Below, one piece after another: positions 7,589 through 47,864 of a stretch of 64,000 nt of DNA. Numbering within the stretch: position 1 is the stretch's first letter; each line of letters begins with the position of its first letter. This DNA comes from a virus, in IMG/VR virus record IMGVR_UViG_3300005590_000001, positions 32,001 to 96,000 of that record. One strand, given 5' to 3'. The translations under genes and the position numbers were made by a program. The notes under the pieces are model-generated. The model was not told the DNA's origin. It was given only the letters and a program-made list of their open reading frames with translations, and made no database searches.

Positions 7589-9226
7589 TTACCAACATCC
7601 TATCCTTTCTCTAATTTCGGCGAGAGTAGTTTCATTCTGAATCTCACCATTACGAAAGACAGTTTGTAATTCATTACCAAGAGCTTCTTCTTCTTGGGTT
7701 ACATCCTCCACCAAATAGTATTTACCGTTAGTATCTTTTCTGACACACAGTAAACCTTTGGCCGACTTTTTAAATCCAGAATGTCCATCGGCACGTTTAT
7801 TTTTATTAGTCTTAGGATCTTTAAAGATGGATATAACTTGATCATTGATCACACAAGATGTGGCCTTACATGCAATGCCGAATGTATCTCGCGTAACATA
7901 CTGATATGTAAAACTGCCGAAGCCAAACACTACATTAGTACTAGCGAACTTTTGTTCAACCAGTCTCGTAATAATATTCTTAGCCTTATCATAATTAATC
8001 GAATCGCCGTAGATAAGTCCAATCTTAGGATTCAATTCTTTGTAACCCTTAGAATTAACGGTACTGCCAAAAATTTCATCAAGCACAGCAACACTACCTA
8101 TTGCTTCTTCTCTTGTAATTTCGCCATTTGCCGTCAGAAATCTACCATCGTCGGTTTGGGCACATTCTATTTGCTCGGAATATGTCATCTCATTCATTTT
8201 ACCAAATTGATAATTTGAATTATGATGTACCCTCGTAATTCTGTAACCGGCAACAATATGTCTAGGATCTCCACTGTCTGGTCTGATTACTAGCTTACCA
8301 TCCCGAGCAAGAATTTCATCTTTGAGCGCAGGTAAAAGTTTAGTTAAAACTCTCCAGTAATCATAGGTATCGCTAACTACTGACAGGATGCCTTTAGGAA
8401 ACCTCTTGAAGAGTTCTTTAAACCATTTTAGTTCGGCATCGTAACGTTCTTCTTCAGAAGTCAAGTTGTTAAAACTTGCCATTCCAATCTGCATAATAGA
8501 ATGTTCAGTTGCCGGAACGCTACCACCGACGAGTTCTTTTTCAATATCGGCACTATAAAATTCTTCTAGGAATTCAATACCGGGAATCGTATCAGTACCA
8601 TAAAAACTTAGAAGATGTGCGGCACCACTAGCACCGGCAGCTTCCATACCAAACAAACCACGCATAGAAAAATCATGACCTTGCCAAGGTACAAAGTTTG
8701 GATCGCCAGTTGCTTCGGCAAATTCATTTAACATTTGTCGAATATGATTAGCAGTAGTAGCTGAAGTCATAGGACCCCAAACAACATTTTGTTCAATGGT
8801 TTCTAAGTATCCCGGCAACCACGGAAAATCTTTATGAGTACTAACCATAGTGGTGAATGGAACTTTAGTCGGACACTTAGATCCTTCTGGCAGTGCTTTA
8901 ATATGGATCGGTAGATAACCAAGTTTGTGTAATTGCCGCAAATTATCAATAGGGTAATCGATTTCTTCTACACCAAGACAATGCTTAAGGATTCTACTAA
9001 ATCTATTGACGGCGTCGTTTTCATCAAGATCGAAGAAGTATTTGTTCCAATAATCTATTAAGTAGTGTTTAATGAAATATTGTAGGCCGAAAACTACAAC
9101 CTCATCTACATTTTCAACTCGCGAATTACGTGCTGTTGTGTTATTGTATACTTTGGTAACTCCATCAGCTACCATTTTAGGATGGAGACACTTATAAAAG
9201 TCTGCCGCACTAAGAGCGCTTTTCAT
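7589..9226 (-). CDS. nadV: nicotinamide phosphoribosyltransferase family (Nampt/Namat-like)
   Basis: DFYK, HDFSMRG, GTDT, PATEHS, SVVSDTYD, IRPDSGDP, GDSI, KKSAKG. Confidence 0.93.
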   Translation of the reverse strand: MKSALSAADFYKCLHPKMVADGVTKVYNNTTARNSRVENVDEVVVFGLQYFIKHYLIDYWNKYFFDLDENDAVNRFSRILKHCLGVEEIDYPIDNLRQLHKLGYLPIHIKALPEGSKCPTKVPFTTMVSTHKDFPWLPGYLETIEQNVVWGPMTSATTANHIRQMLNEFAEATGDPNFVPWQGHDFSMRGLFGMEAAGASGAAHLLSFYGTDTIPGIEFLEEFYSADIEKELVGGSVPATEHSIMQIGMASFNNLTSEEERYDAELKWFKELFKRFPKGILSVVSDTYDYWRVLTKLLPALKDEILARDGKLVIRPDSGDPRHIVAGYRITRVHHNSNYQFGKMNEMTYSEQIECAQTDDGRFLTANGEITREEAIGSVAVLDEIFGSTVNSKGYKELNPKIGLIYGDSINYDKAKNIITRLVEQKFASTNVVFGFGSFTYQYVTRDTFGIACKATSCVINDQVISIFKDPKTNKNKRADGHSGFKKSAKGLLCVRKDTNGKYYLVEDVTQEEEALGNELQTVFRNGEIQNETTLAEIRERIGCW

Positions 9227-37545: not shown

Positions 37546-38947
37546 GGACTTTTTCCCGTTTGTTGTATTGATTGGCGATATTCTGTGCCTGATCACGACT
37601 CAATCCATAATCAGTAAATTTGCCGGTTATGGTATCTTTGACACAGAAGTAAACATGACTTGCTGGTTCAGGAATCGCTTTGTATCGACGCATAATCACC
37701 CTTCATAAGTCCATCTCCGGTAAATCCAAAGTGTTGACACAAACATGCGTGTCAAATTCCGACACAAATATGGCACCACGCTCAGACTGAGACAAATAAT
37801 CTTTATTCGCTCGATGGCACACAAGACAATGACTTGTGTGATGTGACAATTCTGCACCACATGTGCATTGAAATCGCCGACAATCGACACAAGTCGATTC
37901 AAGACTCAATGGTACTCCACACCTTATGCATTCTGGCACGACTATACCCCTTCTTAGCCTCTTCTTCTTTGATCCATTTGATGATCAACTCACACATTTC
38001 CTGCCGAGTTATTTTGCCGTCCATCAAATCCACAAGCGTAGACAATTGGATCGGAATCATTGTCCCACCGAACTTTTCCAGTCCAGCATCTGTTATTTGC
38101 TTGTATGCTGACACAATGTTCTCCCTTTGTAAGTCAGGTGACACAACATTCGCCGATAATGTGTCAGTTGAATATCCGCCGAACTACAATCCTATCTGTA
38201 CTTCTTCAGAGACTCGTATAAAGTCCCAGTTTAAGTTCTGACAGGCTTCGTAGGCAGATTGAGGGTTCCAACCGTGCTGAATTAAAACCTCTTCTGCGAC
38301 AATCTGAGGGACCTGAAACGGTCTCCAAACTTTGCAATTTTCAGCCTCATTGAGAGTCAGCAAAAGATAGAGGGTCATTCAGAAATTCCCGTGTTTTATG
38401 CCGTGAGCGACCTTTTGAGCTAGACCAACCATAAGCAATTGTAGTGCTCAAATCAATGAACTCATAAGAGCTAATAAAGCCCTCTATCCATTCATCAAAC
38501 ACAACAAGAAACTCCTAAAAGAAAGACATTAAGCACACTCTGTATAGTGTTGTGTTAAGGGGTGGATTTTGCTTTGTTCTGTGAAAAACTCCACACTCAC
38601 ACCAAAAAACCCCCAAAAACAGGCGTTTTTTCGCAACTTTTGCCTCAAACTCAATCACTTTTGCACGATTTTATTTGGTCAAAAGGCGACAAAGGTGCGG
38701 CCACAAAAACACGGGGCTTTTTGACATTTTGTCATTTCGACAAGAAAATTCCCCAAGAGGGTAGTCAAAATTTCCCCGGGGGGTGGTCTCAACTGAAAAT
38801 CAAAAACACGGGAGTTTTGCACGAAAATGTACTTGGCCTCACTTGGCCTCACAACGGTCGGACTTAGAACGTAAAAATTCTTAATCCTACCCTATCCGTT
38901 ATCCCGTTTGCTTTGCGGACTTCTGTTGTTTGCAGAAGCCCCGTCGT

Positions 38948-39319
38948 TCAGATTTCTTCGATCTGCTTTCGCAGTCGTTGGTAACGAGCTTTCGACATCG
39001 GCCGACTTCCCCACCTCGAAATACTTTCGGCAGTCTTACGAAAGAACCGCAGAATTTCTTCTGATCGGATGTATTCGGATTCGAACATTCCCTGAGCAGC
39101 AGACAGGTCCGCCTGAATATCAACATCTTCCATGAAGCGTTCACGCATTTGCCCAATGCGATTCAATTCTCGATTAGCATCCGACTTCCGCCGATAAATC
39201 CTCAAGATCACATCCCCCGGATTCTCACCGAAAACTTCCAGAAAAACACAAGCTTCCTGTTCCGTATCAGATTTCCGGATGATGCTTTCCAGAGTATGCA
39301 ACTGCATTTGATTCTCCAA
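38948..39319 (-). CDS. hypothetical protein
   Basis: ORF; internal GGAG precedes the second Met (MQLH), the probable true start. Confidence 0.55.
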   Translation of the reverse strand: MENQMQLHTLESIIRKSDTEQEACVFLEVFGENPGDVILRIYRRKSDANRELNRIGQMRERFMEDVDIQADLSAAQGMFESEYIRSEEILRFFRKTAESISRWGSRPMSKARYQRLRKQIEEI

Positions 39320-39358
39320 AACTGAACGAATGTGAAGTTTAACACGAGCGAATGCGAG

Positions 39359-39431
39359 TCAGCCATGCTGGATTCGAACCAGACCTACCCAATAAACGGT
39401 GGGCAATGCTACCAATTACACCACAGGCTGA
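39359..39431 (-). pseudogene. degenerate tRNA-like element
   Basis: GGTGTAATTGGTAGCAT D arm and CTGG-TTCGAAT-CCAG T arm, but bulged acceptor and 8-nt anticodon loop. Confidence 0.5.
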
Positions 39432-40422
39432 TTACGGCAGGGAAAAATTCGTCCCAACCACTGCCGTAGAACAAACGGGACTACCCCTGAATTACAGGAG
39501 AAAAGAACAGACGGCGGAAATCCAGAAGTTAGTGTCCACTGAACCCATATATGTTTTTAGATTCCGAGTGGCTATTGTAGGATTTCGGCTATCTTGCCGA
39601 TAGAAACGGCGACTGATCCCAATCAATCAGAACGCGGGAATGTTGGATATCGCTGGACTCACCCGTAGGCTTTTGAGGATTCCCGAATTACTTCGCCGTG
39701 ATACTGTCTAATCAATACTCGGCCGAATATTGACACAGCACAAAAGTCGGCAAATCGCCGACAAACAAAATCGAACCGAGCCATTACCAAATGAGCCATT
39801 ATAGCCGATTCTAGTATAGTCGGAACATTCTCAAACTGATATCAATCTGAGAAGTCCTCTAGAATACTGACTGAGTAGGGAATCGAACCCTCAACTCGGT
39901 TCTTTCCAAAATCGCCGAACAAAAATTCTTGCAGTATTGCCGCAATAGCTTTTATCGGCGAAATCCCAAGGTGCAAGACTATCAGCATCAACCAACAAAA
40001 TGCACCTTATGCCTTACCACTGATCCAAACAGGGATCACTTATCGGCTATCCGCCAATGTTATGCAACCGGAATGCCAGTCTCAAAATGATGACTGCAAT
40101 TCGGATTGTCGCAAGTGACTTCGCAATTCAAGCACAGTTTGTTTGCTGCACCTAATTGCATCGGTCGCTGAATCGAGTGTAATTCTGCCGATCCAGCCGC
40201 CGATTCTCTGTCAACAACCTCTTGAGCGTCAGTTGAATTATTGAACGGACCCCACAATGTTGCACTACCATTAGCATTAACAACTGTGACGAACCAATCT
40301 CTATTCAAATGACTATCCAACATGAAACACTCCTCAGAAACACAGCTTGCGAATGTCCGCCGATTGTTCTCTTTTCATGTAAATCCCGCCCGGCAAATGC
40401 CGGGCGGAATCCCAGACAACGC

Positions 40423-41058
40423 CTAGCTGTCGTCTTCGTCTTCGCCGAAATCGCCGAAGTCGAAATCGCCCATGACTTCGCCTGCGAGATTCGGTGCCCG
40501 CTTGCTGCGAAGATTGGTGTACTTCTTGACATTCTGTCGCAAAGCTACGGCAGCCTGTTCGTACAGATCCTCAGTGATATCGGTGAAACCAATATCCCGC
40601 AGACCCTCAACAGGATGAGCCACACGATCTTCGCCATCAAACGAATACTTGATGGAACTGGCGTCCTTTTCCATCGCGTTTCGAACTACCGTGTTCACGC
40701 CGCTTGTTCCGCGACCATCCACGATTCCGCCGAAGAACTTACGGCAGACCCCTTCGTAGATCTGATTCCGAGCGAATTCCAACGCACGATTCCACTGATC
40801 GCGGAAGATGTTACGTGGAATACCACCCAAACGCTTGTCCGGCAGCTTGCCATCCCAGCCGATCATTCGGCAGGCAACTTTCGGATTGGTCTCTCCGTTG
40901 ACCAGACAAAACGACGCAAAGTGCTGAAGCACGTATGCGTTAAACACTGGCGGGTCAACCGTTTCGTAATCACGAACACCCGGCTTTTCCCGCATTGCAG
41001 CAATGGAATTTTCCAAAGCTGCCGCGTACCATTCCTCAGTCTGTTTCGACACAGCCAT
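40423..41058 (-). CDS. hypothetical protein with acidic tail
   Basis: GAGGAG RBS; hairpin after stop. Confidence 0.7.
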   Translation of the reverse strand: MAVSKQTEEWYAAALENSIAAMREKPGVRDYETVDPPVFNAYVLQHFASFCLVNGETNPKVACRMIGWDGKLPDKRLGGIPRNIFRDQWNRALEFARNQIYEGVCRKFFGGIVDGRGTSGVNTVVRNAMEKDASSIKYSFDGEDRVAHPVEGLRDIGFTDITEDLYEQAAVALRQNVKKYTNLRSKRAPNLAGEVMGDFDFGDFGEDEDDS

Positions 41059-41607
41059 GAGAAAATCTCCTCAAAATGAGGTGAACAAAACTGTCCGACT
41101 ACTACGATTCGCCGAACAAAAATTCAGACAGAATGTCTTCGGTAATCGTACGATCACTCCTGACTTTCCGCCGTTTCTGTTTCCATGACAATCCCATTGA
41201 GGAACCATCAGAAAACCAATCCGTTACTTCGTCACCGAAGAACACTTTTGGAATGACCGTGCCATTCCATGCCGCGAACCGGACACACAAACGACCGTTC
41301 TCACGAAACAGGTCAGCAATCGCACACTTTTCGTGACTTTTGCCGTTAGATTCAACGATTGTGAACCGCCGGTTTTCCGCTTTTCGCGGGATTTTTAACC
41401 GTTTTCGCACCGTTTTCTCCGTTTTGTTGTCGTTGTCGTTGTTTGTGGTTGTCTCTGTCGCCACCCTATAAGCTATGGAGGGCACGTTGTCCGGTTTTTC
41501 TGGCAGGATTTGACGCTGTAATTTTGAACACTGTACAAACGTTGTGCGGACACTTGAAAGGTGTACAGTGTACAAGCGTAAGGTGTGCAAATGTGAGGTG
41601 TACAGAG

Positions 41608-43616
41608 GTGGGGTCGACAAGTGTTAAGTGTACAAATGTTCATCTGTCGCGGACATTTGTCCCGCGACCGCCTGTACAGTGTACAAACGATCAGGAGAAC
41701 AAATGTTCAGTCAAACAAACCGCTCCCCTGTACAAGCGTACAGGGGAGGGTTGCTGTACAGATGTCAACTGTCTCTGCGATGGTTCAAACCACCATGCCG
41801 CCGATGACTGGGCACCTGTCCAGTGTATTGGAACATTGTACATTCGTCCATGCAGACGTGGTCCTCCATTTTCTTCTCTAGACTCTTGTACAGGTCCTTC
41901 AGGCGAGCGAAGTACGCTGAACGCTTGATCCGCCTGAACTTATGATCAGCGGCAATTCCGAGATCAGCGTCGCCGTTCTTTCGTAGACAATTGTACAGTG
42001 CCACGCGGCGGAACTTCTGATCGACATTCGGGAACATGCTGGACAGATGATCAGTGTGTTCGATCTGACTCTGCAAAAGAGCCAACTGGTTATCTGTCCA
42101 GTTCAGCGAATCGTCCATCATCATCTCATGAAGTGGAAACTTGTTCAGCTTGCCGTATTCGTCGTGAGTTCGGCGGACTGTATTCATGTACAGGTCCACG
42201 TGCTTCTCACGAGACTGACGATTCAGCATAGTGTACAAAGTTACACCGATGAACTTCAGGTTTCGCAGTGAACGGGTGTACACTACTTCCTGTGGTCTGG
42301 ACGATTGTCCAATTTGAATCCACGTCGGTTTCTGCTGGACAAATGTCCCGAAGATTCCGGTGGATTCTTCGTAACTGATCGGATGTTCAAGCGGACCTTC
42401 GAGCGAGGTCATTTTACTGAACTGACGTATATATGATTCGCTGCGGGACCGAATACTGAACTCGTGTCCAGTTTCCAAACATCTGAATCGAATTTCTTTC
42501 ACCTTGCGATTCTGTACAGTGTTCTTTTGATCAGTACGTCGGCTGACCGTTTCCATATCGACCACGTGGATTTTACTGTCCACACGTTCAACTGTACGTG
42601 CGACCAGATAGGCTTTTCCGCGGTCAGTCGGATCGAACCACCTGCACAGTGTTGAACAATTGTTCATCAAAAACGCTCGCTGGCAGGCGTCCTCAATATC
42701 ATCTCCGCTGAAAATTTGATCAGGGAGTTGCAACCCACTGGACACGCGTCCATCTCGCTGCTGATCCGGATTGAACATCTTTCCGCCCCGACCATGATTC
42801 GCGGTCCCGTCAGTGGAATGATGTACAGTAGTCCGTTCTCGCATCGAATTCAGCTTGGTGGACACGCGTTCACCCCGCTTCCGGTTCTGTGCATTGCAGA
42901 AATCGGCCACAAACGGATCACTGATCGCACGTATAGTGGTCAGAATCTTGATCTGTTCATCTGTATAGTGAATCCCGTTGTCGAGATTCGGTTCAGGTGA
43001 ACAATTGGACAGTGCCACGAACAAGCACCTTGCAGCACGAAGCGGCATTGTACATCTGTACACTGTCGGTCGTGCCATGAATCCGGTGCGTGTCCTGTAC
43101 AGTGTGAACCGAAGCATACGCTGGTCAGTTGTCCACGCGTTGTCCATATTGAGCATATGTTCAGCACAGTACCAATGATCAGTAACGTCATCGACCCACG
43201 CTGGACATTCGCTGTCCATAGACAGATGTTCAGCCATATCGGCGACTGAACCGATGTACACTGGAATTCCGGTATCTTCTGCCGCACGAATTGTGGGGAG
43301 CTGGCGGAATGCCTGCATTGACATTTGTTCACGTGTAACGCCTGTCATGGAAACGCCGGTTGGGAAACTGTTCATCTGTACACTCCTCAAAACAAGAGAG
43401 AAACGGTCGGCTGAACACATGTCCAGCCGCCCGGCAGACTGCCGGGAAACCCATTGTAGCAAGCTGTCCGGCAAAATCCACACAATTCGGGAAAGATTTT
43501 TACTGGAATATTGAACACTGTACAGACTATCAATGTACAAAGTGACACTGTACAAGAGTGGGGTGGACATCTTTGCACTGTACAAATGTTCTCTCTCGCG
43601 GACATTTGTCCCGCGA
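41608..43616. repeat. ~60-bp imperfect direct repeats (41608-41667, 43558-43616) bracketing a TGTACA-saturated block
   Basis: GTGGGGT.GACA......TGTACAAATGTTC...TCGCGGACATTTGTCCCGCGA in both copies. Confidence 0.85.
41765..43375 (-). CDS. hypothetical protein (~536 aa)
   Basis: long ORF; GAGGAG RBS 7 nt before ATG 43375. Confidence 0.7.
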   Translation of the reverse strand: MNSFPTGVSMTGVTREQMSMQAFRQLPTIRAAEDTGIPVYIGSVADMAEHLSMDSECPAWVDDVTDHWYCAEHMLNMDNAWTTDQRMLRFTLYRTRTGFMARPTVYRCTMPLRAARCLFVALSNCSPEPNLDNGIHYTDEQIKILTTIRAISDPFVADFCNAQNRKRGERVSTKLNSMRERTTVHHSTDGTANHGRGGKMFNPDQQRDGRVSSGLQLPDQIFSGDDIEDACQRAFLMNNCSTLCRWFDPTDRGKAYLVARTVERVDSKIHVVDMETVSRRTDQKNTVQNRKVKEIRFRCLETGHEFSIRSRSESYIRQFSKMTSLEGPLEHPISYEESTGIFGTFVQQKPTWIQIGQSSRPQEVVYTRSLRNLKFIGVTLYTMLNRQSREKHVDLYMNTVRRTHDEYGKLNKFPLHEMMMDDSLNWTDNQLALLQSQIEHTDHLSSMFPNVDQKFRRVALYNCLRKNGDADLGIAADHKFRRIKRSAYFARLKDLYKSLEKKMEDHVCMDECTMFQYTGQVPSHRRHGGLNHRRDS

Positions 43617-43675
43617 GCACGTTAGAATCTGTGCCCACGGGCAGCCCGATTGCTGCCCGTTCTTACTTTTGAGAA

Positions 43676-44116
43676 TCAGCGTCGTTTGCGGCGTACTATT
43701 CTTTTGCAATCACACTTGCGTGCGGCGGCAAGAGCGGTTTTCTTGTCGATTCCCATTTCTTGCAATTCTTTTGCTTTGTCGAGAATCGACTGCATTCTGT
43801 ATTGGAATTCTTGTCTAGCTGGCGGGATATTCGTGCCATGATAATTAACCTTAATTTCATTTCCCGCTGGATACAACGATGCACCTTCTGGAACTCCCAG
43901 ATATGAGAATTCTCCATTGTGACGGAATGGTCTGTATCGTTGACGATCCTGTGCGAGATTCGGAAAGATTCCGAAAATCGTATATGTGTTTCGCTCATCT
44001 GACAGCAGATCACCAGCGTGAGACGCTGTGTATATTACGCGTTTGACGCCTTCGCGGTCTTTGAAGACGAAAACGAAATCGTACTTATGGTGACGGTAAT
44101 TTGCAGGAAACAACAT
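43676..44116 (-). CDS. hypothetical protein
   Basis: AGGAG RBS. Confidence 0.6.
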   Translation of the reverse strand: MLFPANYRHHKYDFVFVFKDREGVKRVIYTASHAGDLLSDERNTYTIFGIFPNLAQDRQRYRPFRHNGEFSYLGVPEGASLYPAGNEIKVNYHGTNIPPARQEFQYRMQSILDKAKELQEMGIDKKTALAAARKCDCKRIVRRKRR

Positions 44117-44475
44117 TATTCAAACTCCTAAAACAGAGAAGGGAAACCACCCGCAGGATCCTGCGGGTGGTGGTCGTCAAGTCTTACAATCTTTCGATTG
44201 AGTGTATTACTTCATGCGGATCTGGATTTGATTCTGCCTTTCCGCGACACTGGATACAAACGTCCAGAATAGCATGGTCGAAAACTTTACCATCCTGCTG
44301 ACTGACTCCGGAAAAACAGACCCGGTATTTTTTCGGGCAGAGATTACAAACGTGGCATTTTCCCGGATACATCCGGTCAAGATAATTCAGAATTGCATCG
44401 TTTGATAGCATTTCGTCACCTTCAGTTGAATGAAGACCACCCGCGGGACGTCCCGCGGGTGGTGGTCGCCAGATT

Positions 44476-44952
44476 CTACAGTTTCTCGATTGCGATCTCT
44501 GCCAAATTGGCATACGGATTGCCAATCCACAACTGAATGCCAGCATGCTTCGCTGTCAGCAGAGCCTGTTCATGCGTGAATTCACGCTCTTCGATTCCCC
44601 CGTTTTCCACAATTTGGACCACGATTTTCCCGTTAATGGGAAATACCATAATTCGCCGATTTTCATCGGCGACGATTCCGAAGCGATTGTCCCATCGTGA
44701 AAAGTGGGTGATTGCATACGGCGCAGCCTTGTCTTGATCCCTCAGTTCAAGATATCCCTTGGCGGTGATTTCGTTCAACTTTTCCTTGACACCATTGACA
44801 GCCATCGGACGACCAGTCTTGTCGTTGGGAAAAAATGTTCCCATTGTCCGCATTGCGGGTGGCTTTCCGTTCTCGAAAACGAATTTGCAGTAAACGTCCA
44901 AGAATCGCGCCTGTCGTTCCGTAAGTTTGTTTTCCGTTGCCTTGCGTTTCAT
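44476..44952 (-). CDS. LexA-like N-terminal DNA-binding domain protein lacking an obvious S24 peptidase
   Basis: LTERQARFL.......NGKPPAMR.MG......V...L..I..KGYL. Confidence 0.7.
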   Translation of the reverse strand: MKRKATENKLTERQARFLDVYCKFVFENGKPPAMRTMGTFFPNDKTGRPMAVNGVKEKLNEITAKGYLELRDQDKAAPYAITHFSRWDNRFGIVADENRRIMVFPINGKIVVQIVENGGIEEREFTHEQALLTAKHAGIQLWIGNPYANLAEIAIEKL

Positions 44953-45009
44953 CGTGTGAACTCCTGAAAAGAGAATGTTTGACGCGGTCGATTGCCGCGT
45001 TCTGCCCCT

Positions 45010-45037
45010 ATTCTAGCGACTGTTCTAGGATCGTCAA
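45010..45037 (-). promoter_or_regulatory. sigma70-like promoter upstream of LexA-like gene
   Basis: TTGACG-16 nt-TAGAAT. Confidence 0.5.
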
Positions 45038-45133
45038 CAATAAAATTTTACTTTTGTGCAATGGACAAAATCACAGCTTGTTCCCATTTATAGGAATCTA
45101 AATTGTCACTATTGAGAATCCCGAAATTGAGAG

Positions 45134-45599
45134 GACCATTCCTATTTATAAGAATCTCGAAAATCGCGGACATTTGTCCCGCGATCACGCATTTCCTTTT
45201 ACAAAGAAAAGAGCATCGGCCGATCTCCGATGCTCTTGGTCGTTTCGTTCAATCCTGCTTCCGGACCCTCAGGATCGTCGCTTCAGGGTATTCACTCCGA
45301 AACTTGTTCCGGGCATGCTGCTCGGATGACGCCTGAGTGACAAAATAAATTCCGTCAGCATTCTCGACACTGTACCGGGCATAAAGCTCCGGCCGATAAA
45401 CCCGTTCCTTTGTGTTCATGTTGTCTTTCCTTGTAAATCAGGAAACAAAGCGAATCACAGCGAAGTGCTGTGAACTGACACCATATTAACGAGTGAATTC
45501 CGGTTGTCAACATAGCCTTATAAGAATTTTTTACTCCCAATTTTGGGAAGACCATTCCTATTGATAAGAATATATTCGCTCGCGGACATTTGTCTCCGC
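45134..45599. repeat. direct repeat GACCATTCCTATT.ATAAGAAT...CGCGGACATTTGTC (45134-45184, 45550-45599)
   Basis: two intergenic copies ending in the same GGACATTTGTC element as at 41647/43596. Confidence 0.75.
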
Positions 45600-45674
45600 T
45601 CGAAAACGCATAAACGCCCAAGAGATCTTGGACGAGAAAAGCCCGCGGGTTTCCCCGCGGGCTGGGTTCAGTTC

Positions 45675-46112
45675 TTATTCCAGTGGTCCGAGTTCATTCA
45701 CATCCCGAAAAATTGGCTGACACAATCGGAATTCTTGCTGTGTGCCATTCGGCCAGATTCTAAACTTCGCTCCCTCCTTCTCTCTGCAATCCATGCATAC
45801 GTTCCACATCGAATCGTTAATGTCATCATTATCAATCATCATCCCAACCCACATTCGGGTGCCGGTCAATCTGCTTCGCAGAAAATTGCGGATGATAGCA
45901 CTAGATACTGACGGGCCAGCTTTTGCTACAGGGTTGATATGGAACCACCGTACCCTGAGACCCACCTTGGTGGTTTCATAGGCAAGACACCCCGCCATTG
46001 CTCCATCAGGATACGCCATCACAACATAGTGCATATCCTGCGTCAGGAGTGATGCAGGAGCGCCCATATATTCGGCGACAGTGTCAGCAACTTCGAAATA
46101 TTCAAAAACCAT
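45675..46112 (-). CDS. hypothetical protein (possible GNAT-like fold)
   Basis: start MVFEY after GGAG; GCLAY...RVRWFHINP. Confidence 0.45.
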   Translation of the reverse strand: MVFEYFEVADTVAEYMGAPASLLTQDMHYVVMAYPDGAMAGCLAYETTKVGLRVRWFHINPVAKAGPSVSSAIIRNFLRSRLTGTRMWVGMMIDNDDINDSMWNVCMDCREKEGAKFRIWPNGTQQEFRLCQPIFRDVNELGPLE

Positions 46113-46170
46113 GAGCGTTCTCCAAAAAACACCCGCGGGTTTCCCCGCGGGTGTCGATTCAGACCCAACC

Positions 46171-46461
46171 TTACAATTCAACTTCTGTCCGTGCTACGGT
46201 GTCAGCATTGAAACGGGCATGAATGCGGGCACCACCCGTTGTGCGGTCAACGCTGCATTGCATTGTGTGTGGCAATGCTGACTGAAACGCCGTGATAAAC
46301 GCGTCACAATCAACAACGTGAAACCCGATCACATTCCGGCTGATCCCGTCAGGGAATTGCAATTCCCAGACATCCGAATCCAGCACGGAAGCATATCCAG
46401 CACGGCGCAAAGTAGCGGCAAGCTGAATTTCACTTCGGTCGTCCACAATAGAAACGAGCAT
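46171..46461 (-). CDS. hypothetical protein
   Basis: ORF between hairpin repeats. Confidence 0.55.
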   Translation of the reverse strand: MLVSIVDDRSEIQLAATLRRAGYASVLDSDVWELQFPDGISRNVIGFHVVDCDAFITAFQSALPHTMQCSVDRTTGGARIHARFNADTVARTEVEL

Positions 46462-46645
46462 ATCAAACCCCTAAAAGAGACCCGCGGGTTTTCCCGCGGG
46501 TGGTGTGAAACTGCCTCACGCGAGGTAGTCGATAACTTCTTCAATCTTGGTCACTGTCCACTCTGACAACAAAACCAAGCCCCAAATTGGCATCACAAAC
46601 GCCAGCACAACTGACACTCCGATCAGAATCGGCAACTCAAACAAA

Positions 46646-46918
46646 TCACGCATCTTTCAACTCCCGTGGCCAGATAATGCTGACCGCATAATCGGCATCC
46701 CAACCGATTCGATTATTGGAAATCACAATTTGCCAGACTGCTTTGCGATTCTTCCGGGCATACCGTCGACGCTCCACGATGAACGTCTGACCCGCAAAGC
46801 TGATCTGCCTAGGTTGTCGGCGGAATTCGCTAAACTTGAAGACGACTGACCGGCCATCTTGGTGCTTCAATCCCCAGTGAGTATCGCTGGGATCCTGCGA
46901 AATATATCGCGTTGCCAT
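46646..46918 (-). CDS. hypothetical protein
   Basis: start MATRY inferred. Confidence 0.5.
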   Translation of the reverse strand: MATRYISQDPSDTHWGLKHQDGRSVVFKFSEFRRQPRQISFAGQTFIVERRRYARKNRKAVWQIVISNNRIGWDADYAVSIIWPRELKDA

Positions 46919-46977
46919 AATGTTGTTCCCTTTTGGGAAAGTATTGTTCGCTGTGACCGTCACAGCACTGAGCACCA

Positions 46978-47005
46978 ATTATAACATCGGCAGGAACAAT
47001 CGCAA
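46978..47005 (-). promoter_or_regulatory. sigma70-like (extended -10) early promoter
   Basis: TTGCGA-16 nt-TATAAT with TGn. Confidence 0.5.
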
Positions 47006-47426
47006 GGCTTTAGTTTTATTTTCTCGTTTGTGTCGTAAGTAGTTGGGACATAACGGCTTAGGGCGGGGTTTTTCATTCTCAAAAATGGTTTTGTGGGGAG
47101 GGCCGGAATCGCCGGGGCCTCAACACACGAACTTCAGCACTTTCCCCACAACATCCGCGGACATCTGCGGGCAACCCCAATAAAAAAGGCCATGTCACCT
47201 TATGATGACACAGCCCTATCATTGTTCAACATCCTCTAAATTTTTTTACTCGTTTTGGTCCAAAGTCCTAAAAACAACTGATGATGTTTCATTATGTACA
47301 TACACAATGTCGCCACAGCCCCAACTTCCAGCCTTGATGACTTTGGACTCTTTGTATCCATCTTTTCCAATATAAGAAGTAACTTTGAGATCCTTTTTCA
47401 ACTCTTTCTTCGGAAATCTAGGTATT

Positions 47427-47864
47427 TTACGCATTTGCATCGGTCGCTTCCCCTTCCCCAACGTTCATTGGGCTGCTATCGAGATCATATCCCGGAGAAT
47501 TACCGTCCCAATGAACGTTGTACCACTCATTTTTAGACATAATCTTCTCAGCCTGTGACTTTGATATGTTGTAACGTGCCATTAAGTCAGACACCTCACT
47601 GCCTCTAGCAGCAGAACGCCGTACTTTCTGGGCCTTACAAAACATAGAATAGCGATACTCTGCCTTCTCGGCCCGTGCTTTCGCGCGGACCTTCGAATCT
47701 GAAGTCCGCGCGCCTTTAATTACTGGTGTAGTCAAAGCTCTTTCACCAAGCCATCCACGTTTTGCACGCTTCACAAGTATATCTCTCGTGAGTTCAGGGT
47801 GAATTCGAGAATCTTCGAGCCAGTCCTCTATAGCCTTATCTGCACCAAATGCTTGCAAGTTCAT
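47427..47864 (-). CDS. putative DNA-binding protein
   Basis: R.KRGW..ERALTTP and C-terminal HTH-like segment. Confidence 0.5.
   Translation of the reverse strand: MNLQAFGADKAIEDWLEDSRIHPELTRDILVKRAKRGWLGERALTTPVIKGARTSDSKVRAKARAEKAEYRYSMFCKAQKVRRSAARGSEVSDLMARYNISKSQAEKIMSKNEWYNVHWDGNSPGYDLDSSPMNVGEGEATDANA

Follow-up and report, generated by a model that had tools for sequence, protein, structure and literature searches.

An early gene of a 172-kb uncultured phage is saturated with TGTACA sites in its coding DNA and both flanks

The stretch analysed here (the window) is a 64,000-nucleotide segment of a 171,987-bp uncultured phage genome, in which an open reading frame of 536 aa (P0001) lies at 41765-43375 on the minus strand and is bounded by direct repeats of about 115-150 bp (41516-41667 and 43503-43616, 77–96% identical in segments). 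Its coding DNA carries 12 copies of the palindrome TGTACA and 25 one-mismatch hexamers. TGTACA occurs 37 times in the window, where dinucleotide shuffles give 16 per 64 kb, and 26 of these copies lie between 41532 and 43584, where under 1 is expected; these represent 26 of the 61 copies in the whole genome. About 32 one-mismatch variants (TGTCCA/TGGACA, TGTTCA/TGAACA) lie in the same interval, so that about 58 sites are present in a module of 2.1 kb. An unbiased scan of all hexamers ranked this as the strongest local cluster in the genome (24 in 2 kb against a background of 0.44), whereas elsewhere in the genome TGTACA is not avoided (35 copies against about 43 expected).

Upstream of the gene, a phased array at 43511-43590 (minus strand) carries hexamers every 15 bp (TGTACA at 43579, 43549, 43534 and 43519; TGTCCA/TGGACA at 43564; TGTTCA/TGAACA at 43512) and aligns with the upstream arrays of two related loci, L003 and L004 (related loci are designated L and proteins P). 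At 43596-43616 lies a palindrome, termed B (TCGCGGGACAAATGTCCGCGA), which consists of a GC clamp around a hexamer pair, marks the cassette boundary and is identical in L003; three copies occur in the window, at 41647, 43596 and 45163. A hairpin after the upstream gene (43637-43660, minus strand) is kept in L003 through compensatory changes. A promoter-like extended -10 element for the 536-aa gene (TGCTACAAT) was identified at 43453-43461 (minus strand) with a CGGACA variant hexamer in the spacer; relatives have TTGACA-17-TATAAT at this position, and L096 has TGTACA inside the -35/-10 spacer. The 5' leader (43412-43446, minus strand) contains a conserved hairpin, CCCGGCAGTCTGCCGGG, followed by the hexamer pair TGGACA-TG-TGTTCA, which can also form an RNA hairpin, while a further TGTACA at 43377-43382 lies between the ribosome-binding site (GAGGAG) and the ATG; in L093 and L096 a hexamer overlaps the start codon. 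A DnaA box near the promoter-like element (TGTGGATTT) is not conserved in L003.

Downstream, a terminator-like hairpin with TGTAC/GTACA in its stem lies just after the stop codon (41723-41748, minus strand), followed by a field at 41516-41708 (minus strand) comprising the dyad GAACATTTGTTC, TGTACACTGTACA, the second copy of palindrome B (41647-41667) and an eight-unit 15-bp array. This field is a paralogue of the upstream array, and L005, a relative with 94% identical DNA, has one extra 15-bp unit here. Although the alignments suggested concerted evolution of the two arrays, this was rejected because paralogues and orthologues are equally alike (64–71%). A second promoter-like element (AGCTTATAGGGTGG), conserved in L003, lies at 41461-41474 (minus strand) ahead of the next gene. 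A search of Rfam returned nothing in the module.

Two genes upstream, at 44476-44952 on the minus strand, a 158-aa protein showed a match to the LexA-type DNA-binding domain (Pfam PF01726, E 7.6e-7), and a profile of its family hit the LexA DNA-binding domains 3k2z, 1lea and 3jso. It lacks the S24 self-cleaving domain, as its C-terminal 80 aa match no peptidase family, and it is the only such gene in the genome. The same position is kept in L003 and L093-L096, and the gene lies two genes upstream in every locus with enough context. A family hexamer lies 8–10 nt upstream of the -35 of the LexA-type gene in L003, L093 and both L096 copies. The third copy of palindrome B (45163-45185) lies upstream of the LexA-type gene cassette and holds the only GNACA-NN-TGTNC dyad in the genome outside the module, the other 9 of 10 lying within it.

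The initial annotation had reported a repeat-bounded module of roughly 25 TGTACA copies and paired dyads, and this observation held and proved stronger than described, with all of the listed dyads present at the stated coordinates. Two details needed correction: the direct repeats are longer than the approximately 60 bp given, and the dyads are simply two hexamers 8 bp apart, the basic unit being the hexamer TGT[A>C,T]CA, with weak and unoriented flanks around its palindromic core. Through the coding sequence single hexamers are spaced on average 36 bp apart, more evenly than random (CV 0.68, P 0.001), with a largest gap of 105 bp. No single period runs across the whole module, only local spacings of 7, 8, 15, 30 and 45 bp being found. 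Pairs at 8 bp outnumber pairs at 7 bp by 35 to 12, but only 6 of 57 neighbouring hexamer spacings in the window module are 8 bp, and three quarters or more of the hexamers are solitary.

Amino-acid composition, which had been named beforehand as the explanation that would undo the observation, does not account for it. Synonymous shuffles of the ORF gave a mean of 3.5 and a maximum of 8–9 TGTACA against 12 observed, and codon-order shuffles gave 0.76. Of the 13 peptide contexts in P0001 that could encode TGTACA, 12 do so, and the figures for relatives are 12/15, 16/18, 18/19, 20/20 and 17/19 (5/11 in the family member P0003), against 28 of 249 in the other ORFs of the phage. The sites also showed excess conservation: there were 0 changes in 156 TGTACA columns against 130 in 2165 elsewhere, and in the coding sequence, compared with L005, there was no change in any of the 222 hexamer columns (72+150) against 67 changes in 1389 other columns. 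The gene itself is under purifying selection (pN/pS 0.16 against L005).

All seven diverged family members for which DNA was analysed, down to 22–25% protein identity, carry the same field, with 97 TGTACA in coding DNA against 7.4 expected. Each of L003, L006, L093, L096, L097 and L098 has 16–28 TGTACA in the gene plus flanks and 0–6 elsewhere. Over seven coding sequences, both orientations of the asymmetric variants were enriched alike (TGGACA 6.7x and TGTCCA 7.6x; TGAACA 9.4x and TGTTCA 6.6x), which points to double-stranded DNA rather than RNA. A full HMMER scan of 1.84 billion representatives found only P0003 and P0004 as relatives of the protein; scans of viral, metagenome and genome collections added only near-identical copies, while searching with P0004 opened its own subfamily. 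A pattern scan of viral contigs for TGTACA-N9-TGTACA-N9-TGTACA gave 77 hits, nearly all tandem or other simple repeats and many lying inside ORFs, of which only the unrelated phage contig L021 shares the word set.

The 536-aa protein is an orphan. No match was found in Pfam, PHROGs, PADLOC or the ESM Atlas (searched twice), nor in PDB profile searches with 3 and with 13 sequences, and 13 family members gave no Pfam, PHROG or PDB match. Two AlphaFold2 predictions were unusable (mean pLDDT 36.7 and 36.1).

Taken together, these data support the contention that the module is a docking field on double-stranded DNA for a sequence-specific protein that reads TGTACA and tolerates TGTCCA and TGTTCA. 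The analysis itself establishes that the sites are selected at the DNA level, are conserved across the family, are strand-symmetric and overlap promoter-like elements; that a protein binds them, which protein it is, that the outcome is repression, and any promoter, terminator or replication activity of the module are inferences from sequence. The interpretation offered in the initial annotation, a protein-coating array overlaid on a gene, was supported in part: its core, an array selected at the DNA level, is well supported by synonymous-site choice, excess conservation of the sites, even spacing, strand symmetry and conservation in every family member, the link to LexA is half right, and sequence does not discriminate among the roles proposed there (sponge, centromere, origin, decoy), although nothing supports a nuclease decoy. 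Our preferred but tentative reading is that the field nucleates a cooperative protein coat, which would occupy the promoter, leader and start-codon region of the gene, bridge or loop the two flanking arrays, and block RNA polymerase along the gene, acting as a dedicated silencer or timer for this early gene and the operon behind it. The regulatory placement of the hexamers is consistent with this, with the arrays sitting directly upstream of two tandem promoter-like elements. The most probable binder would be the LexA-type winged-helix protein, since LexA proteins bind TGT-type half-sites with N4 or N8 spacing (PMC3323433), with the 536-aa product as the alternative or a partner. However, solitary hexamers do not fit a classical LexA dimer on two half-sites, the promoter of the LexA-type gene carries only one hexamer rather than a dyad, and a promoter operator alone would suffice for repression, such that about 37 costly sites inside the coding sequence are not explained by need. 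The field also lies over the big gene rather than over the LexA-type gene, hinting that the product of the former is tied to the sites.

The main rival, which we consider possible but less likely, is an iteron-type replicon module, in which the field would be the replication origin plus control ('inc'-like) sites and the initiator, either the 536-aa or the winged-helix protein, would repress itself. In its favour are the single cluster in the genome, the variation in unit number between close relatives, the promoter overlap expected of an autoregulated Rep protein, and the fixed period of the direct-repeat arrays, which is 15 bp here and 22–24 bp (consensus ACATTTGTACAYCCTTA) in the P0004 subfamily, where they sit in a 450–545-bp non-coding spacer reaching 75–80% AT and look more like an origin. 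In addition, L021 has its array about 1.6 kb from a P4-type primase gene, and the module lies 4–6 kb from the GC-skew minimum and the divergent gene switch, although the skew minimum simply follows gene orientation. Against this, the module in this phage is among the most GC-rich DNA of the genome (about 50% against 36%) with no evident AT-rich unwinding stretch (maximum 70% AT over 40 bp), and no Rep, helicase-loader or primase domain was found in the family searches. No paper linking TGTACA to iterons was found in the literature.

The remaining explanations are all improbable. A centromere- or anchor-like complex would pair or tether phage DNA through the arrays on both sides of the gene, as parC1 and parC2 flank parAB of pB171 (order parC1-parA-parB-parC2; PMC4270457) or as tubC is bound by the winged-helix protein TubR, and a winged-helix candidate does lie nearby; however, no ParA, ParM or TubZ-type NTPase motif or Pfam hit was found in the 536-aa protein or its neighbours, no sign of a plasmid-prophage lifestyle was found, and centromeres are not known to fill coding sequences. 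Control by host LexA, or a host LexA sponge, is suggested by two exact GAAC-N4-GTTC and six GTAC-N4-GTWC matches in the module, but the dominant word is the single hexamer, only 10–25% of hexamers sit in N4 pairs, 7-bp pairs also occur, and the phage brings its own LexA-type protein. A mobile cassette with the direct repeats as recombination ends, or a restriction or decoy function (TGTACA is the BsrGI word), is disfavoured by the syntenic position being kept in all relatives with no empty site found, and by the absence of a recombinase or nuclease domain. Least likely is an RNA-level signal, such as UGUACA as a site for a MazF-type UACA nuclease or for RNA-RNA pairing, since, although hexamers lie in the transcript in all three frames and the leader pair and 3' region fold well (z -2.8 and -8.2), both orientations of the asymmetric variants are equally enriched, phased arrays lie upstream of the promoter-like elements, and the coding region folds no more than neighbouring genes (mean z -1.05 against -0.9 to -1.8).

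Binding-site arrays such as operators, iterons and centromeres are normally short and non-coding, whereas here a whole gene carries one, at a cost visible in its codons and amino acids, and the arrangement is kept in every relative for which DNA was analysed, from several unrelated metagenomes. It offers a natural case for studying how far a coding sequence can be bent to hold a second, DNA-level message, how a peptidase-less LexA-type protein is used by a large phage, and how early-gene cassettes of uncultured large phages are switched; if the field is an origin, it would name the initiator system of a phage group in which none is known. A more speculative view, possible but less likely than not, is that an entire gene has been shaped, at synonymous and amino-acid level, to serve also as a roughly 2-kb cis-acting chromatin-like element, a self-linked binding field that titrates or times its own regulator or fires replication, kept for the whole life of the gene family with sites turning over while their density is held. 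This would be dual coding on a scale not described for phage genes.

Several known systems share parts of this architecture. In the PeSL regulatory cassettes of T4-type phages (PMC2839356), repeated stem-loop plus sigma-70-like promoter units in direct orientation bound orphan early genes, and corresponding sequence features are present on both sides of the gene and at a third cassette, with promoter-like and terminator-like character inferred from sequence; PeSLs, however, carry no binding-site arrays and do not extend into the genes. The YefM-YoeB and Axe-Txe operators (PMC1802561) share the core word TGTACA, read by a small dimeric repressor, but comprise two boxes 12 bp apart (centre to centre) at one promoter, whereas no 12-bp spacing occurs here and the genome has no Phd/YefM gene (no PF02604 match), so that YefM/Phd was rejected as binder; a literature search pairing TGTACA with phage returned, as judged from the listing, only papers on operators of this toxin-antitoxin type and incidental mentions. 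With the LexA boxes of Gram-positive bacteria (GAAC-N4-GTTC; PMC3323433) the module shares a neighbouring protein with a true LexA DNA-binding domain and, in its 8-bp hexamer pairs, exactly this half-site spacing and the TGT/ACA core, but the protein has no cleavage domain, most sites are single hexamers, and they lie in one gene body rather than in promoters of a damage regulon, so that these are not SOS boxes in the usual sense. Iteron replicons with arrays on both sides of, or inside, the initiator gene (P1 incC-repA-incA, lambda ori in gene O, SPP1 oriL in gene 38) likewise form one self-contained, co-inherited unit of binder gene and repeated sites, with arrays on both sides and a promoter overlapping sites, yet they have 4–14 sites of 17–19 bp within 100–300 bp next to AT-rich DNA and a recognisable Rep fold, whereas here hexamers fill 1.6 kb of coding DNA. 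Finally, in the stoperators of cluster A mycobacteriophages (L5 repressor gp71; PMC5712189), one phage repressor binds an operator at a promoter and also many related sites inside transcribed DNA, where binding lowers downstream expression; stoperators, however, are asymmetric 13-bp sites oriented with transcription, mostly intergenic and spread over the whole genome (24 in L5), whereas the present sites are 6-bp palindromes, about 58 of them confined to one 2.1-kb gene module and mostly inside coding DNA.

The 171,987-bp IMG/VR virus record, of which bases 32001-96000 form the window, has a GC content of 36%, and its 'direct terminal repeat' is only an exact 108-bp overlap (genome positions 1-108 and 171880-171987), which probably reflects assembly overlap and is more likely to indicate a circular or permuted assembly than true terminal repeats. 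Window 38600-47800 is a GC-richer block (45-54%) of small minus-strand genes, each with its own hairpins and sigma-70-like promoters, which ends at a divergent gene switch near 47.9 kb; the TGTACA module lies inside this early-type block. The second strongest hexamer cluster of the genome is in the same block (window 44140-46500; CCCGCG, 13 in 2 kb, and also CCGCGG and ACCCGC) and comes from GC hairpins between the neighbouring small genes. An odd tRNA-like element on the minus strand at 39359-39430 matched the Rfam tRNA model at 29.4 bits, just over the threshold.

TGTACA occurs 26 times between 41532 and 43584, and 35 times in the other 170 kb. A scan of every hexamer for local clustering placed this cluster first in the genome (24 in 2 kb against a background of 0.44). 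One-mismatch forms were enriched in a graded way (TGTACA 58x, TGTCCA 23x, TGGACA 14x, TGTTCA 10x, TGAACA 9x and TGATCA 5x), while forms with G or C at the centre were near background, and the word is therefore TGT[A>C,T]CA. TGATCA, a second palindromic TG..CA word, occurs 5 times in the module (window 41690-43180), with CTGATC/GATCAG 11 times (about 5x). The observation made in the initial annotation held, in that all of the dyads it listed are present, and 9 of the genome's 10 GNACA-NN-TGTNC dyads are in the module. The dyads are, however, simply two hexamers 8 bp apart; pairs 7 bp apart and spacings of 15, 30 and 45 bp also occur, and no single period runs through the module.

Read on the minus (gene) strand, a hairpin follows the upstream gene and is kept in a relative through compensatory changes, and after it come palindrome B (TCGCGGGACAAATGTCCGCGA), six units of a 15-bp array, an extended -10 (TGCTACAAT), and a leader with a conserved hairpin and a hexamer pair. 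GAGGAG, TGTACA and ATG mark the translation start of the 536-aa ORF, and a terminator-like hairpin follows its stop codon. Next come a dyad, TGTACACTGTACA, a second palindrome B and eight array units and, last, a second promoter-like element (AGCTTATAGGGTGG) ahead of the next gene. The two flanks are paralogous over about 115-150 bp. Arrays change by whole units: in the close relative L005 (5600-8100, compared with window 41516-41642) the downstream array has one extra 15-bp unit, and one TGCACA of the window is TGTACA there. A third palindrome B stands upstream of the cassette of a LexA-type gene, where a different repeat, GATTCYTATAAATRGGAA-like, is present in two to three copies (window 45075-45155) between palindrome B and the TTGACG-16-TAGAAT promoter, and may be the docking array of another factor.

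The enrichment is more than a consequence of protein composition. The 12 TGTACA in the ORF use all three frames (8 as xTG-TAC-Axx, 2 as TGT-ACA and 2 as xxT-GTA-CAx), whereas synonymous shuffles gave 3.5 (maximum 8-9 in 5000 and 3000 trials) and codon-order shuffles gave 0.76. Of 13 peptide contexts able to encode the word, 12 do so, against 28 of 249 in 127 other long ORFs of the same genome (Fisher P 4e-10); for the Leu/Val-Tyr frame alone, the figures were 8 of 8 against 3 of 115. In comparison with L005, a relative with 94.4% identical DNA, none of the 156 TGTACA positions differs, while 130 of 2165 other positions do (P 6e-5); within the ORF, 72 TGTACA positions and 150 variant-hexamer positions show no change, against 67 of 1389 elsewhere. 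The gene itself is under purifying selection (pN/pS 0.16). Sites are also spread more evenly than expected by chance (CV 0.68 against 0.98, P 0.001, largest gap 105 bp), and the same trend holds in two relatives.

The 536-aa protein is an orphan, and no usable structure was obtained. Its relatives are 96% copies (loci L004, L005, L084 and L085), the protein P0003 at 51% (locus L003, syntenic with window 38.6-49.1 kb) and the protein P0004 at 28%, and a search with P0004 gave ten more proteins at 41-55% identity to it. The database gene calls P0002 (596 aa) and P0009 (739 aa) begin 60 codons (L004:3-182) and about 85 codons (L097:2101-2355) too early, respectively, the extra residues being a read-through of the upstream TGTACA array. 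Every locus with DNA available for comparison shows the same enrichment: in L003 all 17 TGTACA of a 12.2-kb contig lie in the gene and its flanks, in L006 TGTACA is the top hexamer (16 against 0.94 expected), and further relatives have 26 in the module and 1-6 elsewhere (L093-L095), 28 and 0 (L096), and 24 and 0 (L097). Use of encodable contexts in the relatives is 12/15, 16/18, 18/19, 20/20 and 17/19, with 5/11 in P0003. Three site columns are shared across the two subfamilies (columns 149, 221 and 673 of the family alignment A5), all at conserved Val/Leu-Tyr residues, while sites occupy 47 distinct columns in all, so that sites turn over while density is held. Over seven ORFs, TGTACA occurs 97 times against 7.4 expected, and the asymmetric variants are enriched alike in both orientations (TGGACA 6.7x and TGTCCA 7.6x; TGAACA 9.4x and TGTTCA 6.6x), which fits recognition of double-stranded DNA rather than an RNA signal. 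The coding RNA is not unusually folded.

In the P0004 subfamily the gene has a canonical TTGACA-17-TATAAT promoter sequence, with TGTACA in the spacer in L096 and near-cognate hexamers there in L093 and L006; a further hexamer lies at about +15 to +20, and one overlaps the start codon. The leader pair keeps its pairing through changes on both sides and has a G-U pair on the sense strand, and so may also act as an RNA hairpin. Downstream of the gene, this subfamily has a 450-545-bp non-coding spacer, which holds a true terminator, the B-type hairpin, and five or six repeats with a 22-24-bp period (ACATTTGTACAYCCTTA) in DNA reaching 75-80% AT.

Two candidates for the inferred binder stand out. 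The first is the 158-aa protein encoded at 44476-44952, which matches Pfam LexA_DNA_bind; a profile of five family members hit real LexA DNA-binding domains (3k2z at 8.5e-9, 1lea and 3jso), and its recognition helix reads PNAVKGHL where E. coli LexA reads PNAAEEHL. It is the only such gene in the genome, has no peptidase domain, and keeps its place two genes upstream of the big gene in the window's phage, L003, L093-L095 and L096, the last of which carries two paralogous LexA-type genes in tandem cassettes (L096:1295-3127), each with a TGTTCA hexamer 8-9 nt upstream of its -35. LexA proteins read TGT-type half-sites as CTGT-N8-ACAG or GAAC-N4-GTTC (PMC3323433), and the 8-bp hexamer pairs have the N4 geometry and outnumber 7-bp pairs 35 to 12 across seven modules. 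A family hexamer lies 8-10 nt upstream of the -35 of the LexA-type gene in four lineages, and 24 nt upstream in the window. The second candidate is the big protein itself, since the field is co-extensive with its gene in every lineage, which is the usual mark of a binder and its sites inherited as one unit, as with lambda ori in gene O or P1 repA between its iteron sets. Sequence alone does not choose between the two and, as all comparative loci belong to one phage lineage, neither does synteny. The only other protein family known to us that reads TGTACA, YefM/Phd (PMC1802561), is absent from the genome, and its 12-bp spacing does not occur.

We are highly confident that the module is a protein-docking field on DNA kept by selection, and the initial annotation's interpretation is supported in part, its core inference of an array for protein binding overlaid on a gene being well supported. 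Selection on the DNA itself, conservation across the family and strand symmetry are established by the sequence comparisons, whereas occupancy by a protein, the identity of that protein and any effect on expression are inferred from sequence alone. As to mechanism, we tentatively favour a cooperative repressive coat, which would be nucleated at the arrays and 8-bp pairs, extend over the closely spaced internal hexamers, occlude the promoter and start region, bridge the two arrays, and block transcription through the gene.

The main rival, which we consider possible but doubtful, is an iteron-type origin with control sites. The 22-24-bp AT-rich iterons of the sister subfamily argue for it, as does L021, an unrelated phage contig (GC 54%) that shares no protein with the window's phage but has, at 8150-8440 and near the contig end, a continuous array of about 21 units at 7/8-bp spacing built from the same words (TGTACA, TGAACA, TGGACA and TGTTCA), about 1.6 kb from a PriCT_1 + DUF3987 (P4-type) primase gene. 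Against this reading, the module is among the most GC-rich and least meltable DNA in this genome, and no initiator-type domain was found. Centromere, host-LexA, RNA-level and mobile or restriction readings are less likely.

In form, judged from sequence alone, the flanks of the gene resemble the stem-loop plus promoter cassettes (PeSLs) that bound orphan genes in T4-type phages (PMC2839356). The repressive coat that we favour would be closest in spirit to the L5 repressor with its stoperators (PMC5712189), but with palindromic sites concentrated in one gene.
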